A stretch of DNA of 64,000 nt from a virus (lineage: Duplodnaviria > Caudoviricetes), in IMG/VR virus record IMGVR_UViG_3300028591_000103, positions 64,001-128,000 of that record; one strand, given 5' to 3'. Positions 8,479 to 50,830 of the stretch are shown piece after piece; position 1 is the first letter of the stretch, and each line of letters begins with the position of its first letter. Both the position numbers and the translations under genes were made by a program. A model generated the notes under the pieces. The model did not search any database. It was given only the letters and a program-made list of their open reading frames with translations, and was not told the origin of the DNA.

Positions 8479-8484
8479 GTAAAA

Positions 8485-9661: not shown

Positions 9662-9670
9662 AAGCATTTA

Positions 9671-9910: not shown

Positions 9911-10021
9911 ACTTATTTTTTTTTATACACATAATCTGTGTGAGATGGTTCTTAAGCAATATCGTAAATCCCGAGATTCCATTGAATGAGAATTGTCGCT
10001 CTTTTCACCAATATGATTGGA

Positions 10022-11935
10022 TCACGCCTTCACGACCTTTTCTAACGGTGTAACAGTAGGTTCTATTCCATTTAATGTTTGAGATAAGCCGACATTGATT
10101 GCTGTTGAGATATCTTGGAATAATAATCCTTGAAGGATACCTGCCCGTTGTACAGCTTCACGGAATGCAACCTTCGTATATGACAATGGATTCACATCCG
10201 GATGTTTTCCGTATACATATGCAAACGGTTTTCCGGAATGCTGACATACACGACGTGCCATGATCTCATATGTAATTGAAGGACCTGTCAGATCGATACG
10301 ATTGATTTCCAAACAACGGAACATCATTTCGACCATGATGTTATATGGGATCTGTGGTGTTTTACTATACAAGAATACTTGGTTGATGAAGAATTCCACA
10401 TTTGCAACATTCTGTCGAATTGCAACGGAACATACACGTGATCCAGTGTCATATGGAATGATATAATATTCTGGGTCTTCTTGAATATCGTCATAAATTT
10501 TGAAATCAACGGATCCAGGAATTGTTAATCTGTCGGAGTGTAATTCTTTTCCTGCATTGTCATAGAACTTGACAGGGACTACACCGAATGCGGATGCGGA
10601 CGTTGCTTCAATGGAGAATCCCTTAAAGTCTTCGAATACGCGTGGGATAAATACCTTCATTGGAACTTTGTTGACAATGAATCCTTCTTCCACATCATAA
10701 TATTTGCTATTGACTTCAAACAGATGTTTCTTATCGATGATAGCCGCCTTCATCGTCAAGTCATGTTTTGATTTCAATTTCAAGTTCAGAAGTTTCTGTG
10801 TGATGGAGGTTGTCAACAATCCGACTTGTGTAACTCCGAGATTATGGAAAACTCTTCCTGCACATTTTCCACAGATTGCATCATGTGTGCAACATTGTGG
10901 TGAATACATTTGAACCGTTTTTCCAACAAAGTTTCCAATGTTGTCATTTGTCGTCATCACAGTTTTTCCATTCCAATTAATGTTTCGATATAACATGTAT
11001 TGTTTATTGGAATCAGTAATTGTAATTGGTATCGTAACAGATGTACCACAATCAGAGTTTGGATCCGGGTCAATATGTTCTGATTGCAATAATGCAAGGA
11101 TGATCTTTGCCATGTAGCCGGCATCAGCGGTACCAACTGCAGACGGATATGCACCGGCAACAACTGAATTTGAGAATGCTGGGATGTCTTGTTTTTTGAT
11201 ACCATCCATAAGAGATGATTCAACGACATCAAATTTTCCGGTAATATTATTGTAAACCGGACCTCTCATAACATTAATGGTTTTATAGTTATTATCCAAA
11301 TTACCATCACCAGATGCATACAGATCATAACCATAGTCACCTTTCAGATTCTTACGAACCATTCCCATGAGTTCTTTCTCAATTGCACCAGATGCAAGTA
11401 ACTGTTTCGTCGGGTCATTCGATTTCAAATCCGCTTCATGTTCTTTTAACAATTCCATCTTCCGTTGTTTTACATCATTCATAGGACGAACCAATGTTGC
11501 TGAGATGGACGATGATAAGAATGAGGCTGCCTGGAATCCCAGTGTATCACGTTTATCAACAAATTTACCAAGCGTCTTTGTATCAATTTTATCCGTGATA
11601 ACGAGATTGTTTACAATTGTATTCATCTTACCGAGATTCTTGGAATTTAATTCATTATTCCAATACCCCATAAATTGAATCAATCCCGTTGATTCCAACA
11701 GAAAACGATTCATGAATAACAACCCCAGAGTTGTTTCAAGTTCTTCTTTGACATATTCATATTCGGAATGGGATAATTTAATTGTATCAGTCGCATTGAA
11801 TGGTGGTTGTACCATCTTATGTGCAGTACGATCATAATATCCAGCAAATAAACTTTCCAAGAAATCTTTATTGAATTCGGATATATCTGCAGAGAGAATC
11901 CGTTGTTTTCCGACATTCGCATTATTTTCAGCCAT
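10022..11935 (-). CDS. RNA polymerase beta' C-terminal subunit (probably virion RNAP)
   Basis: Bridge helix TADAGYMAK, SDCGT, Zn site CCTHDAICGKCAG, trigger loop TQKLLNLKLKSKH; late promoter upstream. Confidence 0.88.
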   Translation of the reverse strand: MAENNANVGKQRILSADISEFNKDFLESLFAGYYDRTAHKMVQPPFNATDTIKLSHSEYEYVKEELETTLGLLFMNRFLLESTGLIQFMGYWNNELNSKNLGKMNTIVNNLVITDKIDTKTLGKFVDKRDTLGFQAASFLSSSISATLVRPMNDVKQRKMELLKEHEADLKSNDPTKQLLASGAIEKELMGMVRKNLKGDYGYDLYASGDGNLDNNYKTINVMRGPVYNNITGKFDVVESSLMDGIKKQDIPAFSNSVVAGAYPSAVGTADAGYMAKIILALLQSEHIDPDPNSDCGTSVTIPITITDSNKQYMLYRNINWNGKTVMTTNDNIGNFVGKTVQMYSPQCCTHDAICGKCAGRVFHNLGVTQVGLLTTSITQKLLNLKLKSKHDLTMKAAIIDKKHLFEVNSKYYDVEEGFIVNKVPMKVFIPRVFEDFKGFSIEATSASAFGVVPVKFYDNAGKELHSDRLTIPGSVDFKIYDDIQEDPEYYIIPYDTGSRVCSVAIRQNVANVEFFINQVFLYSKTPQIPYNIMVEMMFRCLEINRIDLTGPSITYEIMARRVCQHSGKPFAYVYGKHPDVNPLSYTKVAFREAVQRAGILQGLLFQDISTAINVGLSQTLNGIEPTVTPLEKVVKA

Positions 11936-32374: not shown

Positions 32375-32410
32375 TGGTGGGGCTTTCGCCCCACCACTTT
32401 CCTTTTTTTT
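32375..32410. terminator. Terminator between convergent genes
   Basis: TGGTGGGGC-TTTC-GCCCCACCA plus T-tract. Confidence 0.8.
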
Positions 32411-35400
32411 TATTTGATTTGAATAGGAGGTGTATTCGGAATCGTGGATATCAACCATTTGTTTTCAAATGAATCATCAATCCGAATTCGAATACCAGAA
32501 CGGAGGAATGGGAATATTTTCAGAGTGTTTGCAGTATCATCGATTGCAGAATTCTGATAATTCGAGATATACAATGTGAAACAGTAATCTGTGATTCCGG
32601 ATGTATAAATCTCGAAACCTTCGCCTTCTTCCAGTTTCCTCACATGTAATCTCTGTACCTGTCTGTCTTTAATGTCATAATCACTGAGATGTGATAATTT
32701 GATACTACCATTCAGACGTTCCCGTTTCCATACCAAATCGTACTGCTCCAACAATTTCCGGTTGGAATATTCCATAAATCCCATTGATGTCGAAGTCAGA
32801 TGGTAAATCGGAACACCATTGATTGTTGGAATATGATGAAGTTGATTATATGATACAGGATCATCACCAGTATCAGCGTTGATATTATCCAGAATATCCG
32901 GTTCCACATCAACATTGTTTGAACGTCTGATATCATCTGTCAGATATTCATCAATACCATATTTTGTATTCAAGTTGAAAATATACTGAACAGATTCATC
33001 CATGACGTTTGCATGACGTTTCAGAATTTCATAGTATGATCCATATACATTTCCATCCAGGTCAATATACATATTACCCTTTGGGAATAATTTGGAATCC
33101 ACCACATCATCAACCAATTCGACGATATCAAGATTCCGCAATGATGTCAGGTTTCTTAATTGCAAGGAAGTTGGTGATAGAATAATGATATCATCCGGAT
33201 CAGAAATGAATCGACCATTCACCCAGAATTCATAACGATCACGAGACAACGGTGTTGCAATGTATCCTGTTAAGTCAATGATTCCATCTTCTGGAATTGA
33301 TTGAGAAGCATATCGACAGATGCCAATATAATTCGTACGAATCGTATTCACATCTTGATTCAGAGCCAGATCAATCGTCAAACGTTCTCTGAATGTATTC
33401 TTGAAGATATTTCCAACAGGATATCTCAGTTCCTTTTCTTTGTCATAATACACGGTAAACAAATCATTGTCACCGAGATTATATGGAGATACATCATGAT
33501 CTGTATCGAGTTGATAATGATTCTGGAGATAAACCTCCATTGTTTGTAAATCAACATCCGGATCTTTCGGAACGAGAATCACTTCATCTGGTATCAAACG
33601 ATGTTTGATATTCGAAAAACCTTTCCAATCTTCAAATTCTTCAAGTTTAACCCAATCCGCATAATGTGTTAATGGAATTGACGCATGTGACATATGAACC
33701 GTAATGACTCCTCCAGACATTGGATGAGAAGGATCCGGCTTGATGTAACATACAAAATCTGCATCAACATATTCGTCAGCGGTTGTCTCAAGTACACGAA
33801 TACTCGGAGATCCTTCGGTTCCTGTGATCAATGCAGTGAACATAACAGACGAAGCAATCCCGTTGAATTCCGCATTCGCATTGTTATTCACACATGCTAA
33901 TGTAACATATGTGTCAGAAGCAAATCCATCGAACATACGGATGATTGATGTATTGAATTTCGGAATCTGAATATCGGGATCGGTTGTGATGTTTGATATC
34001 GGATGTTTGACATAGATATCGAAATCATCATAATCAAATGTCGTTTGATCATTCTTCGCCATCATATCACAGAATCGAATCGGTGAACCTGTGGTGAATA
34101 ATCCACTGCGAGATGGACGTTTGAACATGATCGCTGATTCAATTCCAGAAGCTTCCAAGAAATCCTCCGGAACATCTTCCAATTCAGCAGGATAATAGAT
34201 TTCGTTTTCGTCATAATGTTTTCTCAAACGAATTTTGTCATATGGATTATGTGATTCTGTCTGTTGTTTATCCAATGCTAACACCGGTCTGAATCGCACT
34301 TTACAATTCATTCCACTCATTGTGATATCATCAAAGATATCTGAATGATCATACACATAATAGATCAAGATCTTTTTCGATGTATAACTTTGATCGGTGA
34401 ATTCAATGATCAATTGTGTCAAAACATTCATTGTCCAGTCATATGTTGGATCATCATCGAAGTGTGCATGATTTGCACCAGATTCAACAACGGAACGCAC
34501 ACTGTATTCTGATGGATCCAACCAACGTTTGTGTTCCCAGTCATACAATCTGACTTCGACTTGATCTGTATATGGTAGATCCTGAATATGTGGACGGAAT
34601 GTATGGTCTAATTTTGCACGACCATTTGAGATATACACCATTGCAGCATCGTATGTGATTACATTATACCATGTAGAAGGTGTTTCCAAATAAGCCATAT
34701 ACAAAGTCAAACGGTCTTGGAATTCTACCTGATACTGATACTTCAATGTCAGATCGGATATTTGTGTTTCAATTTTACGTTTTTCGGCAACTGTCTTGGC
34801 TTGTGACATTTGATATGATAAACTACGAATTCTACCTTGCATGTCATGAATCGTTTTGATTGTCTCATTGAATAAAGATGTATACTTTTTCTTTTCCTGA
34901 TCATAAATCAGACTCTTCCGTTCTCTATCCCATATATTATGATCATTCGGTTCATGACGCAATAACGGGTATAATTCCGGATTTGTCAATGGATTGAAAT
35001 CATGACGGATTGTATTGATAATCATGATATGACCAAGTTGTGAAGTTTGCATCAGATCTCCAGAACCGATGTAAACAAAATGATGTTTTGGATCAATTGT
35101 TTCATCCAAACGATTCGGAATCTCATCATGAAACATCCAATTCAAACGGGTGTACACATAATCGGAATTTGTTTCGACGAAGATAGGATCACCCGGTAAT
35201 GAATAACAATCAATGAAATCATCTGCGGGAACATGTGCCGCTGTTGATAATGGTGGGATTGGATAGAATTCACCATCCCATTCGGAAAATTCATCCAAGA
35301 AATTCCGAATGTTATCATTCACGATTGTACATGTCACATCCGTCGTGAGGTATTTCTCCATCACAACAGGATCGGTTGTGTGGAACCATCGTGCATGATG

Positions 35401-38400
35401 TTCATCCACCTTCAGTTCCAATATTCCGTGGTTCTGCGAATGATTGATCGATGTAATTGTCATTGGGAATAAACTCAAACCATCATCTGTGTAGGCATAT
35501 ACAGTTTGTCCAACAAAATACTTTCCACCCAATGAAGGTAATGTCACACCAACAACCTCGTTATGATATACATGACACGGTTTGAAGAACATTTCTTTCG
35601 TTGGTCTGTTAGATTGATCAACAACAGACAATGTATTCATTCTTGCACAAGACAAATACAATTTATCCCAAGGACCTTGTAAATTTGCTTCACGTGGAGG
35701 ATTACAATATTCCGAAAGATGTGTCAATGGAATGAAATGATTTCCACATAATAATTCATAATGTAATTCTGCATGACGAACATTGACAACGTCATCATGA
35801 TCGTTTACATCGAATCTTTCATGAACATTCATGACTTCCATTGGAATACATTGTAAACCGGAATACCGTTCAAATGTCTTCAGTATATCGGAAGAGATTG
35901 ACACTTTCGTGAATGTGAAATTGTATGTGTATGTATTTATGGCATTTCCATTCTTGTCATAATATTTTACGCTCTTTTGCCATTGTGCATACAGGTTTCC
36001 ATTTACAAATGCATTTTCACATGTTGGTACAAGTCGCAATACACGATAACCGGTTCCGGCAATGTGCTCGTAATCAACATGAAGTGTGACTGTATAATGT
36101 CCTTGTTGATCATTCTGAACATCTGGGAATTGTACAAGAGGACTTGTTTTCTCGATCAGAAGTTCTGCATAAGCTGGAGGTGCACCCAATATACTTGGTT
36201 GTGGTCGTGTTGTCAAATCGACAGCATCCATCACATAGAAATCGAAGATGTAATTCTTCATGACGTCATTACAATAATCGACCAACAGTTGGAGGAATTG
36301 ATTTGCTTGTGATGAAGAATCATAGAATGAATCGATCACTTCTTTTGTTACATCAAACTGATTCACACCATCCGGTTCACCGAGTAATTGTGTAGTTACC
36401 ATCAGATTCAAATGAGCTGCCCAGAATTCCAATTTGTGTTTTGTCGCATCATCAACGACATTTGGATTATCGTCATAATACATTGACATTTGTATCAGCA
36501 TCATTCGATCCAATGTTTCTGCCCATTGTCTGTATTCATGCAGACTCATCGGTTGATTCATCTTCTTCAGTTGTAAATACAATCGTCTGATTCTACGAAC
36601 CGCTACACTCTTGAATCCAGTACATTCGTATACTTTCCTCATGCACATCAATACCTGGTTTACAAGATATTGAATCGTGTATGGATCATAACCAATCTGA
36701 GACAATCTTGTCAATTGTTCAATTTGAATCTGTAACGTGTTTACAACATTCAACATTGGATTCAACAGCGAACCAAGCAAGAAGTAGTTTGCAACCATCA
36801 ATGTGCTTGGATGATGTGCTTGTAATGAACCACCCTGCGAATCAACATAGGCTTTCATCTTCTTGCAAGTTCTGTCAATGACTTTTCGATATGAATCGAT
36901 TCTGGTTTGTGTGTTCCATATCGATTTATAATCCGTCGTAAAATCATTGATCACATCATAGATTTCCGCCAGGAAAATAGAAACGATATTTGCAACACGT
37001 GCATCATCATAATACGATAATACTTCAGAATCGTATGAACCGAATTGGATGTAATGATCATGATCCAATTCATCTTGCATGACATAATTGTATTTTGTGT
37101 CATTTTCGTATACATTGAATACGAATGGATATCTTACACCAACATCCTGAGGAGATTCAAACATATCATGATTTGCATCCAATGGATATTGCATTCCAGC
37201 ATATGTTGTTACACCCTCGACGTCAGGGAATACACACAATTCTTTGTCATCAGAAGATAATGCAGATGGAGGTAAATGAATCACGGAATAATTGATTTTT
37301 TCTTTGGGAAGATCCATATTGATTTCGGATAACTTCAAATCCGCATAACGTGGATAGAACTTTTTCCGAGTTACCATATACATCAAATAATGCGCGAGTT
37401 TATCTTCATTGCCTTGCATCATGGACAATGTATAGAATAAGAAATTCAATGCAAATGGGGCACGATATGATTCTTCGGTATAATCAACAACATTATCCGT
37501 CATTGCATTCGAGAACTCATAGTTCATCTCAGATGGATATTCCAAGAAAATATCACCATCTATTTTTTGTTTCATGATTTTAGACAGAATGGATATTTCC
37601 GTGTTCATATCATGTTTCTGATAATAAATCTTGGAGAGTTTCATCAGCTGATTCTCGACATACCAATATTTGACATAACCGATATGACGATCAACTTCTT
37701 TTGTGAATGCATCGAAATCTCTGAATTCAATATCTGTCAGATTATCAGTCTTCAATTCAACCGGATTCTCCGTGTCTGTATACAAGAAGAAAAACTTAAA
37801 GAGCTCATCACCACGAAGATTATCATTAACATAGAAGACATTTTCGATTCCTTTGAAATGTTTGATATCAGGTACATCGAATATCCAACACGGAATATCA
37901 TCATCATGATTATATTTCAATGCGATGAAGCACTGTTCGGCCACAGGACGATTGATTCTGTAATCATCTTTATCCGATGATGTGAAATAGTTCGGATACA
38001 TGATATCATATGTACCGAGTGTTGAGAAAGGTGGTCTGTATAATGGTGCTAAAACGGCTTTCAAGAAGATGTCATAATTATCACCATATAACATGTCAAT
38101 GTCAACACGCTGGACACCATTCCAACTTGGATCTGCATGTGTCAACTCATCCAGATCCAATAAGAACTTTTCAAATTCTCTCAGATATTCCATATTGATC
38201 AATGATGTAATGATCGCACCATTGTAATATGTCTCATAACATTTCCTCAGTAATTTCAGCAGATACTTTGCAGGATTGATGACATGCTTCGTATAGTATT
38301 GACGTGCATCTGTATCAGTATATTTGATATTGCGTTCATGACCGAGATCCAGTACATCATTCTTGTACGATTTCATTGTATCAATCAATGCATAACATTG

Positions 38401-39576
38401 ACGAAGTGTGTGGAATGAAGCAATATTCTTTCCAACACGATTCAATGAAATTGGCGGTGTACAAATTGGAAGATGCTCATCCACATATGTATTTTGTGAA
38501 TGGATTCTACCACCATATTCGTTTGTCACATGATTGTATTGATCATCATAAACATACTGTGTTCCCATCATATCCAGATAGTTTACTGCAGGGAATACTC
38601 CGGACACTTCATGGAAATGTTTGATCATATAGATACGGACATGAGCTTTCTCCGATTTATACCGTTCGAAGTCAACGGTTGTTTTTTCTTGCATGTTTGT
38701 AATAGCACAACCATTTCCTGTCATACTACCAAAGTTCGGAGAAATCATAATCTCTTTACTGACGATTGAGTCAGAGATCTGAACAATACATCTGCATCCA
38801 TTGAACTGTGATCCAACACCCTGGATTCCCATATCACTATAACGAATCACAGGATTGGCTACGTTCAATTTGGTAATCGGTATTTCAAAATCCAGAACCT
38901 TTGATCCATCCAGTTTGTAGATTGTGAATGTAACGTCGGCAGCATATCTCCATCCGATTTTAAAACGGAAGCCCTTTTCATCAATACCGACATACCAGTC
39001 ATCGGACATATAACCATTCGTACAACAAATGACTGTGAATTTCAGAATCGAAGACATTTCGTCCGATAAGAATCGTGCTGCTGGAATATATTGGCGATTC
39101 TCTGTTTCATAAAATGCATGAAGTTTCTGACGAACAAATTCATCACGTTCTCCAAAATGCATTTGATCGAAAGGTACATCTACGATGTAATAGTGATTGA
39201 ATTTATCTCGACAAACATGTTTCTTGTCTGTCTGAGGATATTGGGCAATGACAGCATGTGTATTTACGAGCATCTTACTCATTGCATTCTGCAATGATTT
39301 ACGATACGTTTCTGCGAGAGATTTATCCAGATCTTCGAAGGTATAATTTGATCGCTCCATCAAATCAACCAACATCTGGAATCCCATATTATTTCCGACA
39401 ACGTTATATGGTTGCTCGGTTAATAACATGGATGATGGTTCCATTTCTATCAGTTTCTGATATCGCTGATAAATGTTCTTCCATTTGGTATCATTGTATG
39501 TCTCATGACCTTTTCGTATGCCGGTCATGTACTGATGGAAATGATGAAACCAATCATGGTAATTCATGATAGCCAT
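32410..39576 (-). CDS. Very large probable virion structural protein (2388 aa, baseplate/tail-associated)
   Basis: Single ORF with its own late promoter; C-terminal YEFWVNGRFI beta repeats; function inferred from context. Confidence 0.7.
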   Translation of the reverse strand: MAIMNYHDWFHHFHQYMTGIRKGHETYNDTKWKNIYQRYQKLIEMEPSSMLLTEQPYNVVGNNMGFQMLVDLMERSNYTFEDLDKSLAETYRKSLQNAMSKMLVNTHAVIAQYPQTDKKHVCRDKFNHYYIVDVPFDQMHFGERDEFVRQKLHAFYETENRQYIPAARFLSDEMSSILKFTVICCTNGYMSDDWYVGIDEKGFRFKIGWRYAADVTFTIYKLDGSKVLDFEIPITKLNVANPVIRYSDMGIQGVGSQFNGCRCIVQISDSIVSKEIMISPNFGSMTGNGCAITNMQEKTTVDFERYKSEKAHVRIYMIKHFHEVSGVFPAVNYLDMMGTQYVYDDQYNHVTNEYGGRIHSQNTYVDEHLPICTPPISLNRVGKNIASFHTLRQCYALIDTMKSYKNDVLDLGHERNIKYTDTDARQYYTKHVINPAKYLLKLLRKCYETYYNGAIITSLINMEYLREFEKFLLDLDELTHADPSWNGVQRVDIDMLYGDNYDIFLKAVLAPLYRPPFSTLGTYDIMYPNYFTSSDKDDYRINRPVAEQCFIALKYNHDDDIPCWIFDVPDIKHFKGIENVFYVNDNLRGDELFKFFFLYTDTENPVELKTDNLTDIEFRDFDAFTKEVDRHIGYVKYWYVENQLMKLSKIYYQKHDMNTEISILSKIMKQKIDGDIFLEYPSEMNYEFSNAMTDNVVDYTEESYRAPFALNFLFYTLSMMQGNEDKLAHYLMYMVTRKKFYPRYADLKLSEINMDLPKEKINYSVIHLPPSALSSDDKELCVFPDVEGVTTYAGMQYPLDANHDMFESPQDVGVRYPFVFNVYENDTKYNYVMQDELDHDHYIQFGSYDSEVLSYYDDARVANIVSIFLAEIYDVINDFTTDYKSIWNTQTRIDSYRKVIDRTCKKMKAYVDSQGGSLQAHHPSTLMVANYFLLGSLLNPMLNVVNTLQIQIEQLTRLSQIGYDPYTIQYLVNQVLMCMRKVYECTGFKSVAVRRIRRLYLQLKKMNQPMSLHEYRQWAETLDRMMLIQMSMYYDDNPNVVDDATKHKLEFWAAHLNLMVTTQLLGEPDGVNQFDVTKEVIDSFYDSSSQANQFLQLLVDYCNDVMKNYIFDFYVMDAVDLTTRPQPSILGAPPAYAELLIEKTSPLVQFPDVQNDQQGHYTVTLHVDYEHIAGTGYRVLRLVPTCENAFVNGNLYAQWQKSVKYYDKNGNAINTYTYNFTFTKVSISSDILKTFERYSGLQCIPMEVMNVHERFDVNDHDDVVNVRHAELHYELLCGNHFIPLTHLSEYCNPPREANLQGPWDKLYLSCARMNTLSVVDQSNRPTKEMFFKPCHVYHNEVVGVTLPSLGGKYFVGQTVYAYTDDGLSLFPMTITSINHSQNHGILELKVDEHHARWFHTTDPVVMEKYLTTDVTCTIVNDNIRNFLDEFSEWDGEFYPIPPLSTAAHVPADDFIDCYSLPGDPIFVETNSDYVYTRLNWMFHDEIPNRLDETIDPKHHFVYIGSGDLMQTSQLGHIMIINTIRHDFNPLTNPELYPLLRHEPNDHNIWDRERKSLIYDQEKKKYTSLFNETIKTIHDMQGRIRSLSYQMSQAKTVAEKRKIETQISDLTLKYQYQVEFQDRLTLYMAYLETPSTWYNVITYDAAMVYISNGRAKLDHTFRPHIQDLPYTDQVEVRLYDWEHKRWLDPSEYSVRSVVESGANHAHFDDDPTYDWTMNVLTQLIIEFTDQSYTSKKILIYYVYDHSDIFDDITMSGMNCKVRFRPVLALDKQQTESHNPYDKIRLRKHYDENEIYYPAELEDVPEDFLEASGIESAIMFKRPSRSGLFTTGSPIRFCDMMAKNDQTTFDYDDFDIYVKHPISNITTDPDIQIPKFNTSIIRMFDGFASDTYVTLACVNNNANAEFNGIASSVMFTALITGTEGSPSIRVLETTADEYVDADFVCYIKPDPSHPMSGGVITVHMSHASIPLTHYADWVKLEEFEDWKGFSNIKHRLIPDEVILVPKDPDVDLQTMEVYLQNHYQLDTDHDVSPYNLGDNDLFTVYYDKEKELRYPVGNIFKNTFRERLTIDLALNQDVNTIRTNYIGICRYASQSIPEDGIIDLTGYIATPLSRDRYEFWVNGRFISDPDDIIILSPTSLQLRNLTSLRNLDIVELVDDVVDSKLFPKGNMYIDLDGNVYGSYYEILKRHANVMDESVQYIFNLNTKYGIDEYLTDDIRRSNNVDVEPDILDNINADTGDDPVSYNQLHHIPTINGVPIYHLTSTSMGFMEYSNRKLLEQYDLVWKRERLNGSIKLSHLSDYDIKDRQVQRLHVRKLEEGEGFEIYTSGITDYCFTLYISNYQNSAIDDTANTLKIFPFLRSGIRIRIDDSFENKWLISTIPNTPPIQIK

Positions 39577-40558: not shown

Positions 40559-40598
40559 GAGGGGCGCATCACGCGCCCCTCTATCATTATTTTTTTTT
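40559..40598. terminator. Terminator between convergent genes
   Basis: GAGGGGCGC-ATCAC-GCGCCCCTC plus T-tract. Confidence 0.8.
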
Positions 40599-43500
40599 AG
40601 CCATTCCAGATTTTGCCAATATGCCGTTTTAATTCCACCAAGATTTTGTTAGCTGATGCGGTAACAATCATACTTGGAATCATACGTTTCATGATACTGC
40701 CAGCGGATACAAACATGGAGATTTCAGTTTCCGGATCATCTTCCGTAAATGGTTCCTGTCCTTCTGGAATGACTTCGGAAATAACTTGCTTGGATGCTGC
40801 ATAAACAACACACTTATCTCCGATTGACACATCATCACCATGTTCAATATAAATCTCGATCATGACGTCACAATGTTGTCCTTTAATTGATTGACCATTG
40901 ATCGGTTCTGTCGGTAATGAATACAGTGTATCCAACTTATACACGGAATTCGATTTATCATGTTTATCCAGAATTTTACGTTTCTGGATATTCTCTTTGA
41001 AATGTGCATCAAGCAATTCAAACAGAGAAGGAGATAACTTATCCATTCCCTTTGTTGTATACATTCGAATCTCTTTGACAGTTCCGGCATGTTTGGATTT
41101 GATAATACGTTTCGCAGTATCAAGTGAATTGGAGTCACTCTGGAATGCTTTCAGGAATGCATCAACTGCTTTATCACCAGTATCTCCAAGACCGAATACA
41201 ATCAACGGATCTCCGATTTCAACCTCGTCACCAACTTTGACAATGGACTCCACATCATCGGTTGCATTTAACTTTGATGCCTGACGCATTGTGACATGTG
41301 TTCCAAGTCGTTTTGACATCTTCTCTGTGATCATACCAGCATCCTCATATGTTGCATATGTTCCACAGAAAGCAACCTTTGCAAGCGGACCAACATTCAT
41401 TCTCACCATTCCAGAAGAATCCTTGGAGAAGAACTTTTCATGATATGCCAAAATATCATTCTGTTCAAATGTATCTCCGGGTTCGAAATTGGATTTCAGT
41501 TTGTTATCCACAAAGAATCCGGATCCGGGGTTGAATGAATATCTGTCGGATACTGGTATCGCTTGTTTCTTTTTTGATGCGTATTCGACGATCATGTATC
41601 CATCGCTGATCTCCAACACTTTACCATTCTCTTGTGCAGTAACGGCAAATTCATCAGAAACATATGCAGCAACCAACTCATCGACACCATTCGAAACAAG
41701 AACCGGTTCCGCTTCATCAGTAGGAAGAATATGTCCTGTTTGAGATGTTGCGATTGCCGTACGAATTGCGTCATCACGAGAAACAGTTCCTGGAGTTAAT
41801 AACTCGGAAAATGATGCGAGTTGCAGATCATTGTAATCTGCATCGATACCTTTTGTGGAAGTATAACCACGAACAGATTCCAATTTTGGATCAACCGTCA
41901 ATTGTCGATTGATACCAACGTTATTGGAGTTTGGCGTTGAGATGGCAATCTTACCAACCATGGAATCATCAAATGAACGTTTTGCTTCAGAGTATGCTTT
42001 ATCTTCATTGACTCCACCGAATCCCTTCTTAGAAACATTTTCAGTTTCATGAAGTTCAATCATAGGATTCAATGCAGAAGAAGTCGCAATCGTTTGTACA
42101 TTCATCAACATTGTCATGATTTCATTCGGATTAAATTTCAATTTAGATTCTTTGAATTTTGATCCTGGAGCATTGTTATACTTTGATATTGCAACAGCCA
42201 ATGCGTGATGAATCATTGCGGGTATAATTTCGGAAGAACGAATACGATACAATGAAGCATTACTCTCGGATGTGAAATTATTATCCGCCAACAGATTTGA
42301 TGCATAAACCAGCATGTCACACAAATTATCCGGTAACTTATAATGATGACACACATCTTCTGTGATGGCATCTACAAAGAAATGATAATTTGTAATGAAT
42401 GTTGTTTTCTGTGAAAACTGTTTGAAGAAGATCTGATTGAACATATCCACATAGATTGAATTATCATCCATGATCGTAGATTCAAATTCGGTTGTTGTAT
42501 ATTGTCTCGTATTGATTCGATAGAATCCATTGAACAACAACTGATTCTGAATGGTGTTCTGAACAGCCAATGTTTTATCCTTGAACGGAATCTTCATGAA
42601 TCCTTCTGCGTTTTCCTTGGGTCCAATATAACGATATTGTGCACCAGATCTCTTCAGCAATGAAGACAGACCCTCCCATGCAGCAATCGATACACCGACA
42701 GGCAACATGATACCCATCAGCTTCATTTCTGCATACATGGATAATTTTGCTGGTTTGCCCTTATTATACGCTTTCAATATTTCTTCAGGAAGTGTCGGGA
42801 GAATATTGTCCGTAATGGTTCTGTTATGACGATCCAAGCCCGTTTCTGTATTGATAACAAGTGGAACTTGATCGATCATTCCACAACAGAATTCATTTTC
42901 ATTCACAGTAACAAAATTGAATTCACGCAAACATTGTTCGCGGTTGAATATGATTCTGCATTTCCGTTCTTTATTTTCATAAGAGAACCATTTCTTTGCA
43001 AACTCGTCGTATTCAATCGTAGAAACAAATCGGGAATTCGTCACAGAAGAAGAACCGTATTTGACATATGGATTCTTACCATTGGCGTCATTTTTCTGTG
43101 CTACGGCCTTCATCAACAGGGTCAAATCAACCAACGATTTTGTGTCATATCGTTGAACAGAAATCTTGTTGTAGTTAGATGTCAACATGACAAGTTTCTT
43201 ATTGATCTTTAGAATTGGAATCGGGAATTCCTGTTTTCCGATCGTATACCAAGATCCATTATACAAGAACTTTCCATTCACCATCTTCGGTATGCGGATG
43301 TTGATGTGTGATTGTGTACCAGTCTTCTTATTCTTCAAAGATACTTTCCAATTATGCATCAATGAAGTGGAATCGGAAATATCCGTGACTTCAACATTCG
43401 TAACAACAAATCCTTCTGGAAGTTTTTGTAATGTCATAAATGTTGCGACGATATCCTGATCCATCATTTTTTCTTCATATTCTTTTGATATCATTGGGAA

Positions 43501-44793
43501 TGAAGACCCATGCAATGCTCCATGATTTGTGGTTGTTAATTTCAACGGTTTAATCGGAGGAGGGAGTGGTACATCTGTTACGGAAGAAACAGCACCAGTG
43601 TTCAATTCCTTTAAACGAATTTGACCGATGTTTGAACGCAATCTCATCTCACGTGCTGATGTGACTGTATTCATTGTACTTTGATCATTTGAAACCTCAC
43701 GAGATCCTGCCAATTGGGAAGAAGCTTGATTGATTAATTGATTCTCTACAGGATGATCTCCACCTTGTTCCAGATCTTGAGAGATTCGTTTATAATCCGA
43801 TACAGGTGCATTATTCGGAGAAATACGATGAATCAACGATGCATTGATTTCAAATGTCTTTGCATTGTATAATTCATCTTTCTCTGTTTCTGTAGAATCA
43901 ATACCGAATCGATCTTTGATATTCTTCAAAGATTGTTTGAGATTCCCTGAACCACCATCTGTATTGGTGGCATTTTCTCCCTGATCTGATTCCGATGTAT
44001 CTGCATTGATTTCATCCATCAAATCGTCAATGCTGGAATCACTCATAGATGCGGGCTTTGATGATACTCCTTTAAAAGGAACACCGATTGTTGAACAAAT
44101 GTTCTGCAAAGCTTCGGAATCACTCGGCATGATAGAACGCAAATCCAGTTTATAATCTGCTCCGGTAGAACGAAGGATCACTGTTGTATCTTGTGTGGAT
44201 TTTGTTTGACCAGCAATACAAGCTCCCAACAGACCATTGATCAAATCCGCGTTCATGGAATCTTTACTGCTTCCATCATAAATTTTCACACGGTCTGTAT
44301 TCACAACCCATATTCTTCGTTTTGCCCCAGAGAACATTTGGGCAATTGTATTCATCATCCCAATAACATGATTACCCATATATTCGGGAGACAATTCTCG
44401 AATGATACGGTTCAGTTGATAACATACATCCGAAATCGGGACATACACATTTGTATTTGCCGTTCTTTTAATCGGATATGGTTCTACCGTTAATTGCGGA
44501 ACCATCTTCTGTTTCATCAAGTATTCGACACGTTTTTTATATTCCTGCTGAGATAGTTGATACTTGAAATTCATTGGACCTATCTTACTTGCGACGGAAT
44601 ACGGAATAATAATATTTTTGTAATTGGTACGAGGTGGTGGCATTTTCTTGATCAATTCCAGATCATATTCATAAGAACCTGCCATCAAAAATACAACAAC
44701 ATTATCCTTCTGATCCGGAAGCGCATATGGTGTTGATACCGGTTGCAAATTTCTTCCAGTGGAAAGATCTGTTGCTTCTTGAATAAAGCTCAT
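40597..44793 (-). CDS. RNA polymerase beta subunit, large (virion type, phiKZ gp178-like)
   Basis: TPNSNNVGI, DDAIRTAIATSQTGH, ATYEDAG, IGDK, SKQVIS, IMKRMIPS; start MSFIQEA after AGGAG. Confidence 0.88.
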   Translation of the reverse strand: MSFIQEATDLSTGRNLQPVSTPYALPDQKDNVVVFLMAGSYEYDLELIKKMPPPRTNYKNIIIPYSVASKIGPMNFKYQLSQQEYKKRVEYLMKQKMVPQLTVEPYPIKRTANTNVYVPISDVCYQLNRIIRELSPEYMGNHVIGMMNTIAQMFSGAKRRIWVVNTDRVKIYDGSSKDSMNADLINGLLGACIAGQTKSTQDTTVILRSTGADYKLDLRSIMPSDSEALQNICSTIGVPFKGVSSKPASMSDSSIDDLMDEINADTSESDQGENATNTDGGSGNLKQSLKNIKDRFGIDSTETEKDELYNAKTFEINASLIHRISPNNAPVSDYKRISQDLEQGGDHPVENQLINQASSQLAGSREVSNDQSTMNTVTSAREMRLRSNIGQIRLKELNTGAVSSVTDVPLPPPIKPLKLTTTNHGALHGSSFPMISKEYEEKMMDQDIVATFMTLQKLPEGFVVTNVEVTDISDSTSLMHNWKVSLKNKKTGTQSHINIRIPKMVNGKFLYNGSWYTIGKQEFPIPILKINKKLVMLTSNYNKISVQRYDTKSLVDLTLLMKAVAQKNDANGKNPYVKYGSSSVTNSRFVSTIEYDEFAKKWFSYENKERKCRIIFNREQCLREFNFVTVNENEFCCGMIDQVPLVINTETGLDRHNRTITDNILPTLPEEILKAYNKGKPAKLSMYAEMKLMGIMLPVGVSIAAWEGLSSLLKRSGAQYRYIGPKENAEGFMKIPFKDKTLAVQNTIQNQLLFNGFYRINTRQYTTTEFESTIMDDNSIYVDMFNQIFFKQFSQKTTFITNYHFFVDAITEDVCHHYKLPDNLCDMLVYASNLLADNNFTSESNASLYRIRSSEIIPAMIHHALAVAISKYNNAPGSKFKESKLKFNPNEIMTMLMNVQTIATSSALNPMIELHETENVSKKGFGGVNEDKAYSEAKRSFDDSMVGKIAISTPNSNNVGINRQLTVDPKLESVRGYTSTKGIDADYNDLQLASFSELLTPGTVSRDDAIRTAIATSQTGHILPTDEAEPVLVSNGVDELVAAYVSDEFAVTAQENGKVLEISDGYMIVEYASKKKQAIPVSDRYSFNPGSGFFVDNKLKSNFEPGDTFEQNDILAYHEKFFSKDSSGMVRMNVGPLAKVAFCGTYATYEDAGMITEKMSKRLGTHVTMRQASKLNATDDVESIVKVGDEVEIGDPLIVFGLGDTGDKAVDAFLKAFQSDSNSLDTAKRIIKSKHAGTVKEIRMYTTKGMDKLSPSLFELLDAHFKENIQKRKILDKHDKSNSVYKLDTLYSLPTEPINGQSIKGQHCDVMIEIYIEHGDDVSIGDKCVVYAASKQVISEVIPEGQEPFTEDDPETEISMFVSAGSIMKRMIPSMIVTASANKILVELKRHIGKIWNG

Positions 44794-46145: not shown

Positions 46146-46173
46146 ATTATACAAAAATAAAAAATAAATAGAA

Positions 46174-46195
46174 TGGTGGGGCCGAAGCCCCACCA
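46174..46195 (-). terminator. Terminator
   Basis: On minus: TGGTGGGGC-TTCG-GCCCCACCA plus T-rich tail. Confidence 0.85.
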
Positions 46196-46206
46196 CACTC
46201 TGTTTA

Positions 46207-47025
46207 TTATTTGAACTTTTCGAAGAAAGATTCCTGGATAGGTTTTCTGGTATCCCATCTGCGAAGAGAATTCATCGTGATATCCTGCTTGAACAGATAA
46301 TCCATCTGCGAAATACAGTATTCAACGATTGCTGCATTGAGACCGGTCTCGTACGGAATCTGAATGCCATGCATTGCACCTTCGGTTACAATACGTCCGC
46401 AAATACGAAGAATCGTAGACTCATTGGTCTGCTCATCAGAAATCTGATTATCTTCGTTCTTCTTTTCGATCTTGTTATCAAGATCGAATACAACCGTACC
46501 ACTTGCATTTTTGACAGTGTTAGCCACATCTTCAACAACCTTGTTGGCTACGGTTTCTTTCAGACGTTCCCGCAATTCATCATAGCTCTCAATGTTCTTC
46601 AGTTCTTCCTTCATATCTTCAGCATCTGCCGTGAAAGCATCATCCTGACGATCAACAACCTTAGATTGAACCTTCAGCGTCTTCTCGTCAATCTCCTGGA
46701 CGATTCCACTGAGAATCGGGGAGTTGAGTTTATCACGGGATTTGCAAAGATAATCATAACAGCCACAACCGTAATTATCACGAATGTGTGTCATGATGGA
46801 CTGATCAATCATTCCATCGAGATCTTTTGTCTCATCGTGCATCATTGCACAGATGATATCTTTGAGAACGTATAATGACAGCTTTTCACGAAACTTTCCA
46901 GCATCAAATGTTTCAGGGGTTTTCACACCCATGTTTTGATGCATTGTGGTATTCATATCATTCGGGAACTTATTGTTCGCACCATCAATGATAGAATCCA
47001 GAATAGACTTGATATCAGCCGGCAT
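46207..47025 (-). CDS. Probable internal head protein
   Basis: Acidic helical protein with PIQES near the C-terminus; co-oriented directly after the polyprotein gene. Confidence 0.6.
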   Translation of the reverse strand: MPADIKSILDSIIDGANNKFPNDMNTTMHQNMGVKTPETFDAGKFREKLSLYVLKDIICAMMHDETKDLDGMIDQSIMTHIRDNYGCGCYDYLCKSRDKLNSPILSGIVQEIDEKTLKVQSKVVDRQDDAFTADAEDMKEELKNIESYDELRERLKETVANKVVEDVANTVKNASGTVVFDLDNKIEKKNEDNQISDEQTNESTILRICGRIVTEGAMHGIQIPYETGLNAAIVEYCISQMDYLFKQDITMNSLRRWDTRKPIQESFFEKFK

Positions 47026-47044: not shown

Positions 47045-50000
47045 TTATAAATAATTTCCAGCCTGGCTAACATCTTTGAATTTCATATTATTACCAAAGA
47101 TGATAGCTAGACCATGTTCATTATCGAAATCCCAATCACAATCAATCATGGTATCCCATTTTGATGAGCGGTCATTCGCATAAACGTATGCCGGTCTTAG
47201 ATGCTTCTCCGGATGTTCCCAATCAGCAGACTTTAGTTCGGATTCCGACATCTCAGATTTCCAGCTCTCCATGTAATCACGAATCTGTTTTCGAACAGAA
47301 TCATTGAGGAGTTTCTCGCTATTCTTTACGATATCGAGAGCTTTGTAAGTGCTTTCAAGAGATATTCCTCGTGGAATTCTGACCTTGTATTCCTTGCCGA
47401 AGAAATTCATGTTTGTAGTATCATATTTCGAATCACTTTCTTTGATAGTATACAAAAGCTTTTCGAATTCATCCCAACTTTTGGCAATCTGCTTAAGACC
47501 GTTTTTTGCATCATGTACATAAGTGAATATTCTGGTATCGGTCTTGGACTTATTGCCCATCAGGATTTCGTCACCACGTCCATTATTCGCGAGAGGAATA
47601 AATTCGGCACCAGGATGACCAGCATAATCATATTTGCCGCGATCACGCAAAGATGATTCAATGAGCCCCCATTCACATCCTTGGAACCATCCGTCAGCAC
47701 CTTTGATTCCGATATCTTCAATACCGGACTCGAGTAATCGTTTGTATCCATCTGGAAGAGATCTTCCGATAATAGATTCGCACTTAGTGATATGTGATTT
47801 GAAACGGTCTAAATCTTTTGGTGGATAGTAAGCTTCCTGAACAAAACTCGGTGCTTCTTTCTGAACCTTATCAATGAACTTTTGACCGATGGATTCAATG
47901 CCCTTGACATTGTTTGCTTTGCTTCTCTGTGCATGGAATCCATCATTCAGCATCTTGATATATGCTTCAAAATCTTCTGCGTCCGGTTGTTCCTTTGTAT
48001 CAAAGACATAAACCTTTCCGTTATAGTACAGAAGTTCGTCATCACACTGAATGACACCGAACGGGACTGTTCCTTGTGGATGTAAGAATTCAGCATCCTC
48101 TCCAACAAGTTCATCTGTCCACATCCACATGAGAATGTATGTGTTATCGACAACCCAGTATTCGGTATCATATCCTTTTTCATCAGGAATGTTAATAGAT
48201 TCATTTAATATTTCCTGATAAGCTTTCGACTTATAAACCTTCTTGAAACCTTCAGGAAGTTTATAACCACAACCCGCTTCGATATAGTCTGTATCTGTTG
48301 GATCAGGGTTCTTAAATGAATCAAGCAATCCCTTCATGGAATCAGAAAGTTTCTTGATCTGGTTTTCACCAGACATGTCATAGACTCCATATACCTTATC
48401 CTTTACAGAATAACCGACCAGTTCATCATTGAAGCATGAGAACAGTGGAATGAATACACTGAGCTTTCTTGCTCGTTGGATTTCTTCCGGGTAATAGACT
48501 CTACAAATGATATGGTATTTAGAACCATCTTTGACCATCATCATGTATTGTCCATGATGATCTTGACGCCATTTTACAATGCCTTTCTCCGTGGAAAGAT
48601 ATCGTTTCAAATCCTCCGGAAGAGGACCTGACTGGGCTTCTATCTTTTGAAGACGTTTGTCAGAACTCTTCTTCCGGAGACCGTCAAAAAAACCTTCTTG
48701 GACGGGTTCACCATCATCTGCAGGCTTTTCACGAGTCTCAAGCATCTTCAGAACACCGGTTGCTTCAGAAACAAAAGCTTGAATCATTCTCTTTACAGTC
48801 ATGATTTCACTTTGTTTCACATCAGCACGCATCATCGCCATAAGATCAGATAAGCAATGATTCAACCGCAGGAGCTGTTTGATTTCGGCTTCATTGAATA
48901 CTTTCTTCATCTTTGAAGCCTTATGAACGACACGATTGCATTGTCTGCCTTCCTTGCGGAATGCATCACAAAGCTCTTCGATTTCCATCTCATTGTCGTT
49001 CAATATACCAAGAGCTTTTCTGAGGTGAATATCAAGCTCCTTACCGATATTACCTCGCGTCAGAAAAAAAGCTTCTTGTGCAACATCAGGTGCGGTTCCT
49101 TCAGGAGATTGCAAGAAGTCTTTCAGCTGTTGAAGCGTCATACCCTTCAGTCTTTCAGTACCCTGTGCAAGCAGCTCATCCATCGTCATATTATCAAAAT
49201 CGATATCAGAAACTTCTGATGGAGTATCTGTCATTTCAGAAGAAGTATCAGTGCCGAGTTCAGCATTCAGATCATCTTCGGTCGGTTCATCTGTTGCACC
49301 CAAATCATCAGATACATCGGACGAATTGGTTGCATCCAGATTCACATCATCTGTATTGATGTCTGCATCAGCATTGGTATCATCCGAAATCTTTTCTGCA
49401 ATTTCGTTCGAAACATCGTTAACCGTAACGAGTTCCTTTTGACCATCCGCTGCAGTACCATCATCAACAGCCGGTGTATCTGTCGGCGCAGTTGCATCTG
49501 CATCTGTTGAAGGTGCGTCACCACTGATTTCGGGTGCAGAGTTGTCACCACCATCAATGGAAACAGAAGCTGCATTTGGATCTGCATCCGGAGCAGTATC
49601 AGGATTACCGAAATCAATTTCTTCCTGGAAGAATCTGGAATGTTTCGGCTTCTGATACATTGCTTCTTCCATACGAACAACATCCATCTTCGACATTGCG
49701 TTAGAAGTAACAGCACCGAGTTCCTTTGAGCTGACACGATTCAAATCGTCTGCAGCAATAGCATTCTTCTTCTTTCCAGAATTGACAGGAATCATGAGGG
49801 CAAGATAATCTCTCTTGGTTTCACCATCAATTTCGAATTCGAATGCTGCATGGTATTTATCAACAGGATCAACAAGAATCAGAATACGTGTTGGTGTGAC
49901 GAACTTCCAGATCTTATCGATGTCAGTGCAGTTTACCTTTTCACCCCAGATTTTGAATGCTGCATCACGAATCATAACGCCGAGGCCATCGGCATCACGA

Positions 50001-50605
50001 ATAATGTATGCAGTCTCAAGTTGCTTTCTGGTGATACGATTCTTCTTGTCCAGTTCAAACAGGACAGGAAGCTTGACATAATAGTCTTTGCCGTCACATT
50101 CACCGAAATTGATTGTAACACGGGAAGGAACGCGTTCGTCATTGATATGAATCATATCACCACCGAACAAACCTTCTTGATACAATTTTTCAGTATATTC
50201 TTTATACATTTTATCCGCAGTCGCATAGACACGTTTGTCATATTGATGACCGGTTTCACGTGCGAACTGTGATAATGTTGCATATGCTTCCTGAACAAAA
50301 TCATCTCTTGTCTTGAATTTGGAATAATCCGTGAATTCAGATTCTTGAACAGTCGCATCACCAGGAATATTGGTAACACGTCCATCCAACATGTTCAGTT
50401 CGAGCGAAGTGATCTCGATGTCATCTTCCAGAGGAATGCTCATTCGGTTAAACGCTCTTTGAGGTTTACCGTTCATACTGAGGTCATCCATCTCTTGGAA
50501 CAGATGGGCACATTCGAGAATTGCTTCATCCATTTGTGCTTCCTGGACGGCTTCTTCATCTCGTCCAGTTTTTGCTTGAAGCTGCTTACGAATATACTCA
50601 AGCAT
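47045..50605 (-). CDS. Probable internal-head polyprotein with 3 SMI1/KNR4 (SUKH) domains and a DUF6985-like domain
   Basis: Repeated [VFYA]QE motifs; acidic linker; SUKH signatures IEAQSGPLPEDLKRYL, IEAGCGYKLPEGFKK, CESIIGRSLPDGYKRLL..FIPLANNGRGD..IAKSWDEF; C-terminal CDWDFDNEHGLAIIF. Confidence 0.75.
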   Translation of the reverse strand: MLEYIRKQLQAKTGRDEEAVQEAQMDEAILECAHLFQEMDDLSMNGKPQRAFNRMSIPLEDDIEITSLELNMLDGRVTNIPGDATVQESEFTDYSKFKTRDDFVQEAYATLSQFARETGHQYDKRVYATADKMYKEYTEKLYQEGLFGGDMIHINDERVPSRVTINFGECDGKDYYVKLPVLFELDKKNRITRKQLETAYIIRDADGLGVMIRDAAFKIWGEKVNCTDIDKIWKFVTPTRILILVDPVDKYHAAFEFEIDGETKRDYLALMIPVNSGKKKNAIAADDLNRVSSKELGAVTSNAMSKMDVVRMEEAMYQKPKHSRFFQEEIDFGNPDTAPDADPNAASVSIDGGDNSAPEISGDAPSTDADATAPTDTPAVDDGTAADGQKELVTVNDVSNEIAEKISDDTNADADINTDDVNLDATNSSDVSDDLGATDEPTEDDLNAELGTDTSSEMTDTPSEVSDIDFDNMTMDELLAQGTERLKGMTLQQLKDFLQSPEGTAPDVAQEAFFLTRGNIGKELDIHLRKALGILNDNEMEIEELCDAFRKEGRQCNRVVHKASKMKKVFNEAEIKQLLRLNHCLSDLMAMMRADVKQSEIMTVKRMIQAFVSEATGVLKMLETREKPADDGEPVQEGFFDGLRKKSSDKRLQKIEAQSGPLPEDLKRYLSTEKGIVKWRQDHHGQYMMMVKDGSKYHIICRVYYPEEIQRARKLSVFIPLFSCFNDELVGYSVKDKVYGVYDMSGENQIKKLSDSMKGLLDSFKNPDPTDTDYIEAGCGYKLPEGFKKVYKSKAYQEILNESINIPDEKGYDTEYWVVDNTYILMWMWTDELVGEDAEFLHPQGTVPFGVIQCDDELLYYNGKVYVFDTKEQPDAEDFEAYIKMLNDGFHAQRSKANNVKGIESIGQKFIDKVQKEAPSFVQEAYYPPKDLDRFKSHITKCESIIGRSLPDGYKRLLESGIEDIGIKGADGWFQGCEWGLIESSLRDRGKYDYAGHPGAEFIPLANNGRGDEILMGNKSKTDTRIFTYVHDAKNGLKQIAKSWDEFEKLLYTIKESDSKYDTTNMNFFGKEYKVRIPRGISLESTYKALDIVKNSEKLLNDSVRKQIRDYMESWKSEMSESELKSADWEHPEKHLRPAYVYANDRSSKWDTMIDCDWDFDNEHGLAIIFGNNMKFKDVSQAGNYL

Positions 50606-50683
50606 ATTCTTCTCTCCTTTACATTTTTTTTTTGAAATGGGACATATATCGTTCTTAGGTACTGGAGACATTGTGTATACTAT

Positions 50684-50830
50684 TTATAGTATCACACCAA
50701 ACACTTCGAGAAAAATCTCTGAAACCATGTCTGGGGTCAACTCCGATATACCAATGTCTTCCAATTCCAAATCACCCTCTAACGTTGTACCGTTGATGGT
50801 TGGTTTGTTCTCAAGATCATTGTAATCCAT
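50684..50830 (-). CDS. 48-aa fibre-repeat-like protein (absent from ORF track)
   Basis: SD GAGGTG; MDYNDLENKPTINGTTLEGDLELEDIGI. Confidence 0.7.
   Translation of the reverse strand: MDYNDLENKPTINGTTLEGDLELEDIGISELTPDMVSEIFLEVFGVIL

Follow-up and report, generated by a model that had tools for sequence, protein, structure and literature searches.

What use could a bacteriophage have for toxin-immunity domains attached to a protein that appears to be cut during head maturation? A single gene raises this question. It lies on the minus strand of a 64,000-nucleotide stretch of a virus (Duplodnaviria; Caudoviricetes), positions 64,001 to 128,000 of IMG/VR record IMGVR_UViG_3300028591_000103. We refer to this whole stretch as the window, and positions are those of the window unless another contig is named. 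The gene encodes 1186 amino acids (aa), and we call its product the polyprotein. An N-terminal half (N-half) that it has in common with its orthologues is followed by two cargo modules, D and B, with three SUKH domains and a DUF6985 domain between them, and copies of a motif of the form hydrophobic-Q-E lie between the parts (Table 1; in all motifs ↓ marks the predicted scissile bond). We favor the view that this is a conserved internal head protein of one phage clade, cut by an S80-type prohead protease, whose cargo modules are cassettes that are packaged and injected, the SUKH modules blocking effectors of the host. Drawn in good part by analogy with other phages, this account has, in our judgment, somewhat the better chance of being right.

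Cargo modules and their exchange

Orthologues agree in the N-half and differ in what follows it. The 109 homologues found by a database search, of 664-1384 aa, all have the N-half, and their C-terminal Pfam matches vary (SUKH, DUF6985, DUF1963 or none). The gene order is the same in 26 IMG/VR contigs: a divergent DNA polymerase gene, the polyprotein gene, a gene of ~270 aa (p272), a gene of ~200 aa (p205) and the gene for the beta subunit of a virion RNA polymerase. Across these syntenic contigs the protein ranges from 615 to 1133 aa. The last constant domain is a 4-helix bundle, and the cargo after it measures 0-756 aa; cargo-free orthologues end right after the bundle, and the next gene starts at once (L013, L016, L028, L033). 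Splitting the orthologues at the motif yields ~34 module families that are reused in varied combinations, all of which break at the motif: D+B in the window, and M+B, G+B, N+G+B, D+C, C+E, U+E, J+F and M+G elsewhere. The annotated families are B (SUKH plus DUF6985), D, G, J, M and a28 (SUKH), H (DUF6985) and E (DUF1963/TYPP).

The identities of core and cargo are discordant among relatives, indicating recombination. Orthologue P0003 is 99% identical to the window protein in the core, 96% in D and 67% in B, and for P0004 the values are 99%, 54% and 75%. In P0005 the N-domain is 67% identical and D 96%, and B is missing at the site, the protein ending SFVQE↓NERSE. Phages with an N-domain only 43-46% identical still carry B at 75%. 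Each module carries along its particular starting residues (GFF, AYY, GFL or AAT, for example) and ends in an x-V-Q-E tail that belongs to it, which puts the break point at the scissile bond itself. The junctions share ~9-12 nucleotides of DNA (GTYCARGAA↓G...), and we offer as a conjecture that this shared DNA drives the exchange of cassettes. The preliminary description of this gene had cast the C-terminal part as swappable cargo, and the orthologues bear this out: what they hold is recombining cassettes bounded by Q-E on a constant N-half, not an invariant core.

A second point of cassette insertion is found after the alpha+beta domain of the N-half in the distant orthologues P0071, P0074, P0077, P0078 and P0089 (residues ~290-490). 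The inserts, of 96-200 aa, are bounded by VVQE↓S or VYQE↓G and by FIQE↓A, and that of P0074 (residues 308-421) is a SUKH domain.

For the cargo in the window, Pfam and structure matches support the identification of three SUKH domains and a DUF6985 domain, much as first described. Residue numbers follow the 1186-aa protein, except in the whole-protein Pfam scan, which uses 1208-aa numbering. That scan matched SMI1_KNR4 (PF09346) in three stretches with 57.9 bits (cut-off 25.4), SUKH_6 (PF14568) at residues 797-904 and DUF6985 (PF22481) at residues 1084-1203 with 24.5 bits. Scanned alone, the third SUKH domain (47447-47827) scored 35.2 bits, again with a cut-off of 25.4, and the DUF6985 segment (47048-47446) scored 26.8 bits against a cut-off of 24.5 (26.1 bits in a scan of the genome). 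The second SUKH domain (D2; 47828-48286), to which the SUKH_6 match belongs, reached 23.1 bits for SMI1_KNR4 (E 1.2e-4), slightly under the cut-off of 25.4, and hhalign related it to SUKH module J at 71%; the first (D1; 48287-48688) had no Pfam match when scanned alone. An AlphaFold model of the cargo was also compared with 48,161 PDB chains by VIA-align. Only six chains had Z values of at least 5, all of them SUKH proteins, and the values were modest. D1 (model residues 5-128) matched Syd (3ffv, Z 6.9), BF1740 (3d5p, 6.0), YobK (2prv, 6.0), 2icg (5.8), 2pag (5.3) and Knr4 (5j1b, 5.2), and the third SUKH domain (B1) matched the RhsPI immunity protein (8bd1_B, Z 5.9). Foldseek returned no match for the cargo model at E<=0.001, though SUKH entries were enriched in its list, and phmmer found no match for the cargo in the PDB. 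The ESM Atlas clusters nearest to module B are DUF6985; a search for stand-alone relatives of this module returned only fragments of the same phage protein, and module D had only 3 relatives among 1.84 billion representative proteins. With three SUKH domains and DUF6985, the polypeptide has the two or more immunity-type domains by which polyimmunity proteins are recognized.

How widely the term immunity applies is another matter. Of 128 orthologues, a set from two sources with a few duplicate entries between them, 33 carry SUKH, DUF6985 or DUF1963 cargo, 72 carry unannotated modules only and 23 carry none. It is therefore in the N-half that the gene has its conserved role, and the phrase poly-immunity system, used in the preliminary description, fits one sub-clade and not the system as a whole. 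Similarly, the classing of the cargo domains as immunity components holds for SUKH (PMC3113570, PMC3482391) and not for DUF6985, for which the tool results and the literature searched gave no link to immunity. We also dropped DUF1963 as an established immunity domain, as it has been described as a protein-binding or chaperone-like TYPP domain (PMC4275035). Some of the cargo families, most of which are unannotated, are helical or acidic. When families A, C, F, I, K, L, N, O and P were compared with SUKH profiles by hhalign, none scored above 30%, the profiles being shallow and of little power.

One orthologue has its cargo in a different frame. In L017 (IMGVR_UViG_3300033463_000004, a 262-kb contig; 8383-10055), the protein ends ...NVQE↓GFFQI and a stop, five codons past the junction; this same shortened protein is predicted on four contigs, which come from three sources. 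The junction codons GGT TTT TTT contain the heptamer U UUU UUU, and from there the -1 frame is open for ~552 codons. That frame encodes a module D (collinear with D of the window from the second residue, E 4e-37), then MIQE↓GFF and a DUF1963-type module (E 6e-45). Downstream of the slippery site, an RNA hairpin proved no more stable than in shuffled sequences (z -0.72). L017 may be a case of programmed -1 frameshifting, or of slippage, by which only part of the molecules would receive cargo; or it may be a frameshift allele whose cargo has been maintained. In the window, T7 runs occur at two junctions, 48680-48691 (GGT TTT TTT GAC) and 49061-49072 (GCT TTT TTT CTG), both in frame. Slippage at the former would stop translation ~16 codons later and give a core-only product, and these runs may simply be codon bias.

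The hydrophobic-Q-E motif and the head maturation protease

The motif is far more frequent in the polyprotein than expected. In its strict form, [VI]QE[ASG], it occurs 5 times (0.06 expected), and in the 151-kb record 20 times (2.5 expected; at most 9 in 2000 shuffles). Across 129 orthologues the mean is 5.1 sites (0.19 expected), with V, Y, I or F at P3, Q at P2, E at P1 and A, G or S at P1'. The sites hold conserved positions in the alignment and fall in low-confidence linkers between confidently folded domains. Within residues 1-144 of the polyprotein the predicted sites are AVQE↓A (22), LFQE↓M (38), TVQE↓S (88), FVQE↓A (106) and LYQE↓G (144); later sites are FFQE↓E (328), VAQE↓A (511), PVQE↓G (637) and FVQE↓A (924). 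The gene and the last two sites lie where the preliminary description had placed them.

The phage also encodes a protease of the expected kind, and the motif recurs in its head proteins. A head maturation protease (G000:C1:49579-50469, minus strand) is recognized by PHROG 3014 (E 1.5e-10) and by Pfam Peptidase_S80 (24.5 bits, cut-off 23.4; phiKZ gp175-type), and it has the motif near its own N-terminus (FVQE↓S). Other genomic copies concentrate in head proteins, and four adjoining genes of the head module carry it. In the major capsid protein the site is LIQE↓S, and SF[LMV][IV]QE↓SYNV is kept in 5 relatives. The capsid protein is variable before this site and highly conserved after it, the picture expected of a propeptide boundary. 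In the RNA polymerase beta subunit, the motif falls at residues 55-60 of the long open reading frame, so that the likely N-terminus reads MSFIQE↓ATDL; an N-terminus of the form M-x-F-[IY]-Q-E↓A is found in 9 of 15 relatives. Giant-phage proteases of this family are known to cut in a comparable way: gp245 of SPN3US cuts after A-X-E, preferring Ser at P1', and propeptides of 111-254 residues are cut several times (PMC10052503). Because an S80 protease is encoded and the same motif marks the maturation-type site of the capsid protein and occurs in head proteins, the hydrophobic-Q-E motif is probably the prohead-protease site, with a predicted specificity of V/I/Y/F-Q-E↓A/S/G that is a variant of the x-x-E rule. 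The cleavage proposed in the preliminary description is thus well supported, if indirectly.

Two proteins with the motif call for separate mention. A 1333-aa protein encoded outside the window (G000:C1:45040-49041, minus strand; L005:9040-13041), between the capsid protein and prohead protease genes, has sites at TVQE↓A (449) and FVQE↓G (750) and no family match, and is possibly another head or scaffold polyprotein that undergoes processing. The 272-aa protein encoded just downstream of the polyprotein ends KPIQE↓SFFEKFK. This tail is found only in the closest relatives (TIQE↓SFFDIFK and PIQE↓GFFDYFK in L010 and L011) and is absent from other orthologues. It could be left over from a junction or serve for C-terminal processing.

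The N-half, which the sites divide, was modeled by AlphaFold as an N-terminal region, an alpha+beta domain, an acidic disordered stretch and the 4-helix bundle. Earlier it had been called acidic and scaffold-like. It is acidic only in part: the acidic, disordered residues 330-511 lie between the confidently folded alpha+beta domain and the bundle. Residues 1-144 look like a long propeptide that would be cut repeatedly, by analogy with giant-phage proteins. The acidic linker is flanked by FFQE↓E and VAQE↓AFF, and the first of these is RF[VY]QE↓AIDFG in most orthologues. The N-half resembles nothing that we could name. The alpha+beta domain had no Pfam, PHROG or NCBIfam match and no usable match in the ESM Atlas; the bundle gave only generic helical-bundle matches in VIA-align (Z ~11); the model of the N-half had no significant Foldseek match in the PDB or BFVD; and neither the polyprotein nor its cargo matched PHROGs or NCBIfam. 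A profile of the N-half matched nothing in PBS1 or MarsHill, and hhalign gave no sign of kinship with the similarly placed gp83 of PBS1 (probability 0.3%). No paralogue of the N-half was found elsewhere in the 151.6-kb record, which is estimated to be 56% complete.

Table 1. Features of the polyprotein gene and its surroundings (pLDDT, predicted local distance difference test; pI, isoelectric point; kDa values are for the module)
Feature	Position in window	Strand	Remarks
Polyprotein gene	47045..50605	-	1186 aa plus stop; database gene call P0002, 100% identity
N-terminal region, residues 1-144	50174..50605	-	dense predicted sites, conserved in orthologues; model mostly low-confidence or helical
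Conserved alpha+beta domain, residues 145-328	49622..50173	-	AlphaFold model m72cc5215abda, pLDDT 82-91
Acidic disordered linker, residues 329-511	49073..49621	-	48 D+E vs 5 K+R; pI 4.05
Conserved 4-helix bundle, residues 512-637	48695..49072	-	pLDDT 85-92; ends ...EPVQE
PVQE↓GFF junction (bundle to D), Glu codon	48695..48697	-	pLDDT low at 628-639 in N-half model
Cargo module D, residues 638-924	47834..48694	-	two tandem SUKH-like domains; begins GFF, ends SFVQE; 33 kDa
SUKH-like domain D1 (in module D)	~48305-48676	-	
SUKH-like domain D2 (in module D)	~47960-48283	-	
FVQE↓AYY junction (D to B), Glu codon	47834..47836	-	cargo model pLDDT <50 at residues 274-286, just before junction
Cargo module B, residues 925-1186	47048..47833	-	SUKH-1 plus DUF6985; begins AYY; 30 kDa
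SUKH-1 (in module B)	~47465-47794	-	
DUF6985 (in module B)	~47063-47422	-	
Downstream gene, 272 aa, co-transcribed	46207..47025	-	19-nucleotide gap after polyprotein gene; syntenic in all relatives
Terminator-like hairpin	46173-46196		after the 272-aa gene; terminator scan
Virion-type RNA polymerase beta	40597..44790	-	same gene string as polyprotein; PHROG 3148, E 1e-149

Possible fates of the cargo

How might such a protein work? We postulate that the S80 prohead protease would cut after hydrophobic-Q-E and before A, S or G. The cuts would fragment the N-terminal region of ~144 residues and set free, as pieces of their own, the alpha+beta domain, the acidic linker, the bundle and every cargo module. 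The N-terminal region could first target the polyprotein into the prohead, as do the capsid targeting sequences of T4 and, by the same analogy, the propeptides of giant phages. The cleaved, folded modules would then remain inside the head and pass into the host along with the DNA, like the internal proteins of T4 and the ejection proteins of phiKZ and SPN3US; some phiKZ inner-body proteins, and the virion RNA polymerase, are ejected into the cell (PMC13282480). Once inside, modules of the SUKH type would bind to proteins of the host and so block them, the most plausible targets being effectors of the nuclease or another toxin type from defence or competition systems. Proteins of the SUKH type confer immunity in polymorphic toxin systems, make up polyimmunity proteins and have been taken up by DNA viruses (PMC3113570, PMC3482391), and it is from these three properties that we infer a neutralizing role. 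The cassettes themselves are exchanged, added or deleted by recombination between related phages, exactly at the junctions.

Several points weigh against this account. There is no cultured relative: the polyprotein had no megablast or tblastn match among GenBank phages, and the major capsid protein had no tblastn match (50,697 records in both tblastn searches). For the N-half, no homology could be detected with the inner-body proteins of phiKZ, the internal proteins of T4 or any PHROG. The structural Z-scores of the SUKH domains are modest and D2 is poorly modeled, and the FFQE↓E site has Glu at P1' and may escape cutting. No toxin or target partner was identified among the proteins scanned, which were those of the head module and the neighbours in the incomplete record. 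Finally, with so many orthologues lacking cargo or carrying unannotated modules only, immunity may describe a minority.

A broader form of the idea extends it to all modules. The clade would use one head protein as a chassis for recombining effector cassettes (SUKH, DUF6985, TYPP and ~25 families without annotation) placed between prohead-protease sites; virions would deliver a lineage-specific cocktail of counter-defence or anti-toxin proteins with the DNA; and at least one lineage would attach the cargo to a fraction of the molecules by -1 frameshifting at U UUU UUU. We hold this broader form only tentatively, and would not be surprised to see it fail in one part or another.

Alternatively, the head protein could be processed as we suppose and the cargo act at home, in the producing cell or in the capsid, as adaptors that hold or silence co-packaged phage proteins, an enzyme or toxin for example, or as building blocks of an inner body. 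SUKH and TYPP are general protein-binding domains, with a chaperone-like role proposed for TYPP (PMC4275035). A function in structure or assembly is suggested by the constancy of the N-half, the polyprotein is among the richest predicted protease substrates, and a number of the mostly unannotated cargo families are, as noted, helical or acidic. However, the cargo is dispensable, being absent from the 23 cargo-free orthologues, and it is quickly replaced, as in P0004, where D is at 54% beside a core at 99%. An arms race fits this pattern better than a conserved assembly contact would. Nor was a toxin-like domain, which might need silencing, seen in the head module or the neighbours examined, in a record that is 56% complete. 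We regard a role in the capsid or the producer cell as unlikely, while taking it seriously.

It could also be that the modules neutralize toxins of bacterial competitors or of other phages, such as effectors of type VI or type VII secretion systems or of contact-dependent inhibition, or toxins of the MuF type, and so let the infected cell survive up to lysis. The role documented for SUKH proteins is to confer immunity to interbacterial polymorphic toxins, polyimmunity proteins have been interpreted as cover against non-kin toxins (PMC3482391), and head-associated, phage-borne polymorphic toxins exist in the MuF family (PMC5576092). A protein delivered with the DNA, however, helps mainly against threats of the first minutes, which fits defence systems better than attack by neighbours, and we give this explanation little weight.

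Least probable of all, and in our view improbable outright, is that the motif is a mere linker or recombination scar and the product an intact cytoplasmic polyimmunity protein expressed after infection: bacterial polyimmunity proteins do function uncut (PMC3482391), the short DNA identities at the junctions could just mark points of recombination, and scans for sigma-70 and AR9-type late promoters gave no timing of expression, but the motif matches the x-x-E rule of the encoded protease family and is kept at N-half positions that bound no cassette, at the capsid protein site, at the N-terminus of RNA polymerase beta and in the protease, none of which is a recombination junction.

Genome setting, known systems and meaning

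The window comes from a record of 151.6 kb. By gene content the virus is a jumbo phage of the phiKZ/AR9 kind: besides the virion-type RNA polymerase beta subunit it has another RNA polymerase set, and it encodes tail fibres, a tape measure protein and, divergently upstream of the polyprotein, a family-B DNA polymerase. Its RNA polymerase beta is at best ~29% identical to those of cultured phages (Staphylococcus S6/MarsHill, Bacillus PBS1, Listeria LPJP1, Fusobacterium phages and Yersinia phiR1-37). Judged by these sequence comparisons, the phage is a member of an uncultured clade. Its host is probably Gram-positive or an anaerobe of gut or rumen. The longest open reading frame of the polyprotein gene is 47045..50671 on the minus strand (1208 aa), and we take the start to be the ATG at 50605-50603, which is preceded by a strong Shine-Dalgarno sequence, AAAGGAGAG, at 50620-50612. 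The AR9-type late promoter pattern AACA-N6-TW was not enriched (94 matches, 126 expected). Linkage to a toxin gene, as expected of an immunity protein of a polymorphic toxin locus, was not found: the neighbours encode DNA polymerase, two small conserved proteins and the virion RNA polymerase beta.

Other genes in the window deserve mention. Between the DNA polymerase and polyprotein genes is a small open reading frame of ~47 codons (MDYNDLENKP...; 50685-50829, minus strand) with its own Shine-Dalgarno sequence, shorter than the minimum size applied to open reading frames. In the tail-fibre region, a 670-aa protein (25786-27798, minus strand) has BspA-type leucine-rich repeats (LRR_5, E 1e-67) and is probably a receptor-binding protein; repeats of this type are common in gut and oral Firmicutes, Bacteroidetes and Treponema. 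An open reading frame of 2388 aa (32410-39576, minus strand) has zero Pfam or PHROG matches.

Phages and bacteria have evolved several systems that resemble parts of what we propose here. The internal proteins of T4 (IPI*, IPII, IPIII and Alt) are targeted to the prohead core, cut at x-x-E, retained in the head and injected with the DNA, and IPI* blocks a host restriction system. They are single, small proteins with a targeting peptide of ~10 residues, whereas the polyprotein runs to 1186 aa, with over 140 residues in its putative targeting or propeptide region, several internal sites and modules that can be exchanged; the two have no sequence homology. The propeptide of a T4 internal protein acts as a capsid targeting sequence (PMC9026906). 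The inner-body proteins of phiKZ and the ejection proteins of SPN3US (gp53/gp54; proteases gp175/gp245) come, like the polyprotein, from jumbo phages with a virion RNA polymerase and an S80 protease. They have long, multiply cut N-terminal propeptides and are abundant inside the head, and some enter the cell (PMC10052503, PMC13282480). Their motif, however, is A/S/G-X-E and not V/I/Y/F-Q-E, no homology was detected, and in the literature examined they are not presented as proteins of several modules with a SUKH cargo.

Bacterial polyimmunity proteins (Zhang et al. 2012; PMC3482391) likewise combine several immunity-type domains, with SUKH the commonest, and vary in content between close relatives. 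They are chromosomal and are not known to be cleaved, whereas the polyprotein is the product of a syntenic phage core gene, with the N-half of a head protein and protease-type sites between its modules. The MuF polymorphic toxins of temperate phages share the plan of a constant, head-associated N-terminal domain and a recombining, variable C-terminal module (PMC5576092). Their cargo is a toxin, followed by an immunity gene, and the phages that encode them are temperate siphophages; the polyprotein carries domains of immunity type or binding type and belongs to a jumbo phage that has two RNA polymerases, and no Phage_Mu_F or toxin family was among the Pfam matches of the polyprotein and its cargo modules. 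Lastly, the US22/TRS1/IRS1 proteins of herpesviruses are a further case of tandem SUKH domains recruited by DNA viruses (PMC3113570); these belong to eukaryotic viruses and are not capsid cargo released by a protease. No account of such a protein came up in full-text searches that combined SUKH or SMI1 with jumbo phages or anti-defence. What is known, then, is virion internal proteins processed by the prohead protease; what would be new is their modular, recombining form bearing immunity domains.

If the cargo is delivered with the DNA, the ~34 module families would be a catalogue of candidate phage counter-measures for the first minutes of infection. Because one recognizable chassis and a simple delimiting motif define them, the modules can be mined from metagenomes by synteny and tested singly. 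The predicted S80 specificity, for a clade with no cultured member, can be used to annotate virion proteins across these genomes, and the conserved N-half is a candidate carrier for targeting foreign proteins to a capsid. Swappable SUKH modules on a probably cleavable head protein suggest a virus-delivered counter-defence kit. If this is true, the principle of T4 IPI* would extend to a modular, recombining polyprotein, and SUKH domains, known from bacterial toxin immunity, would gain a role in phage offence, making this system a mirror image of the polymorphic toxin systems of bacteria.

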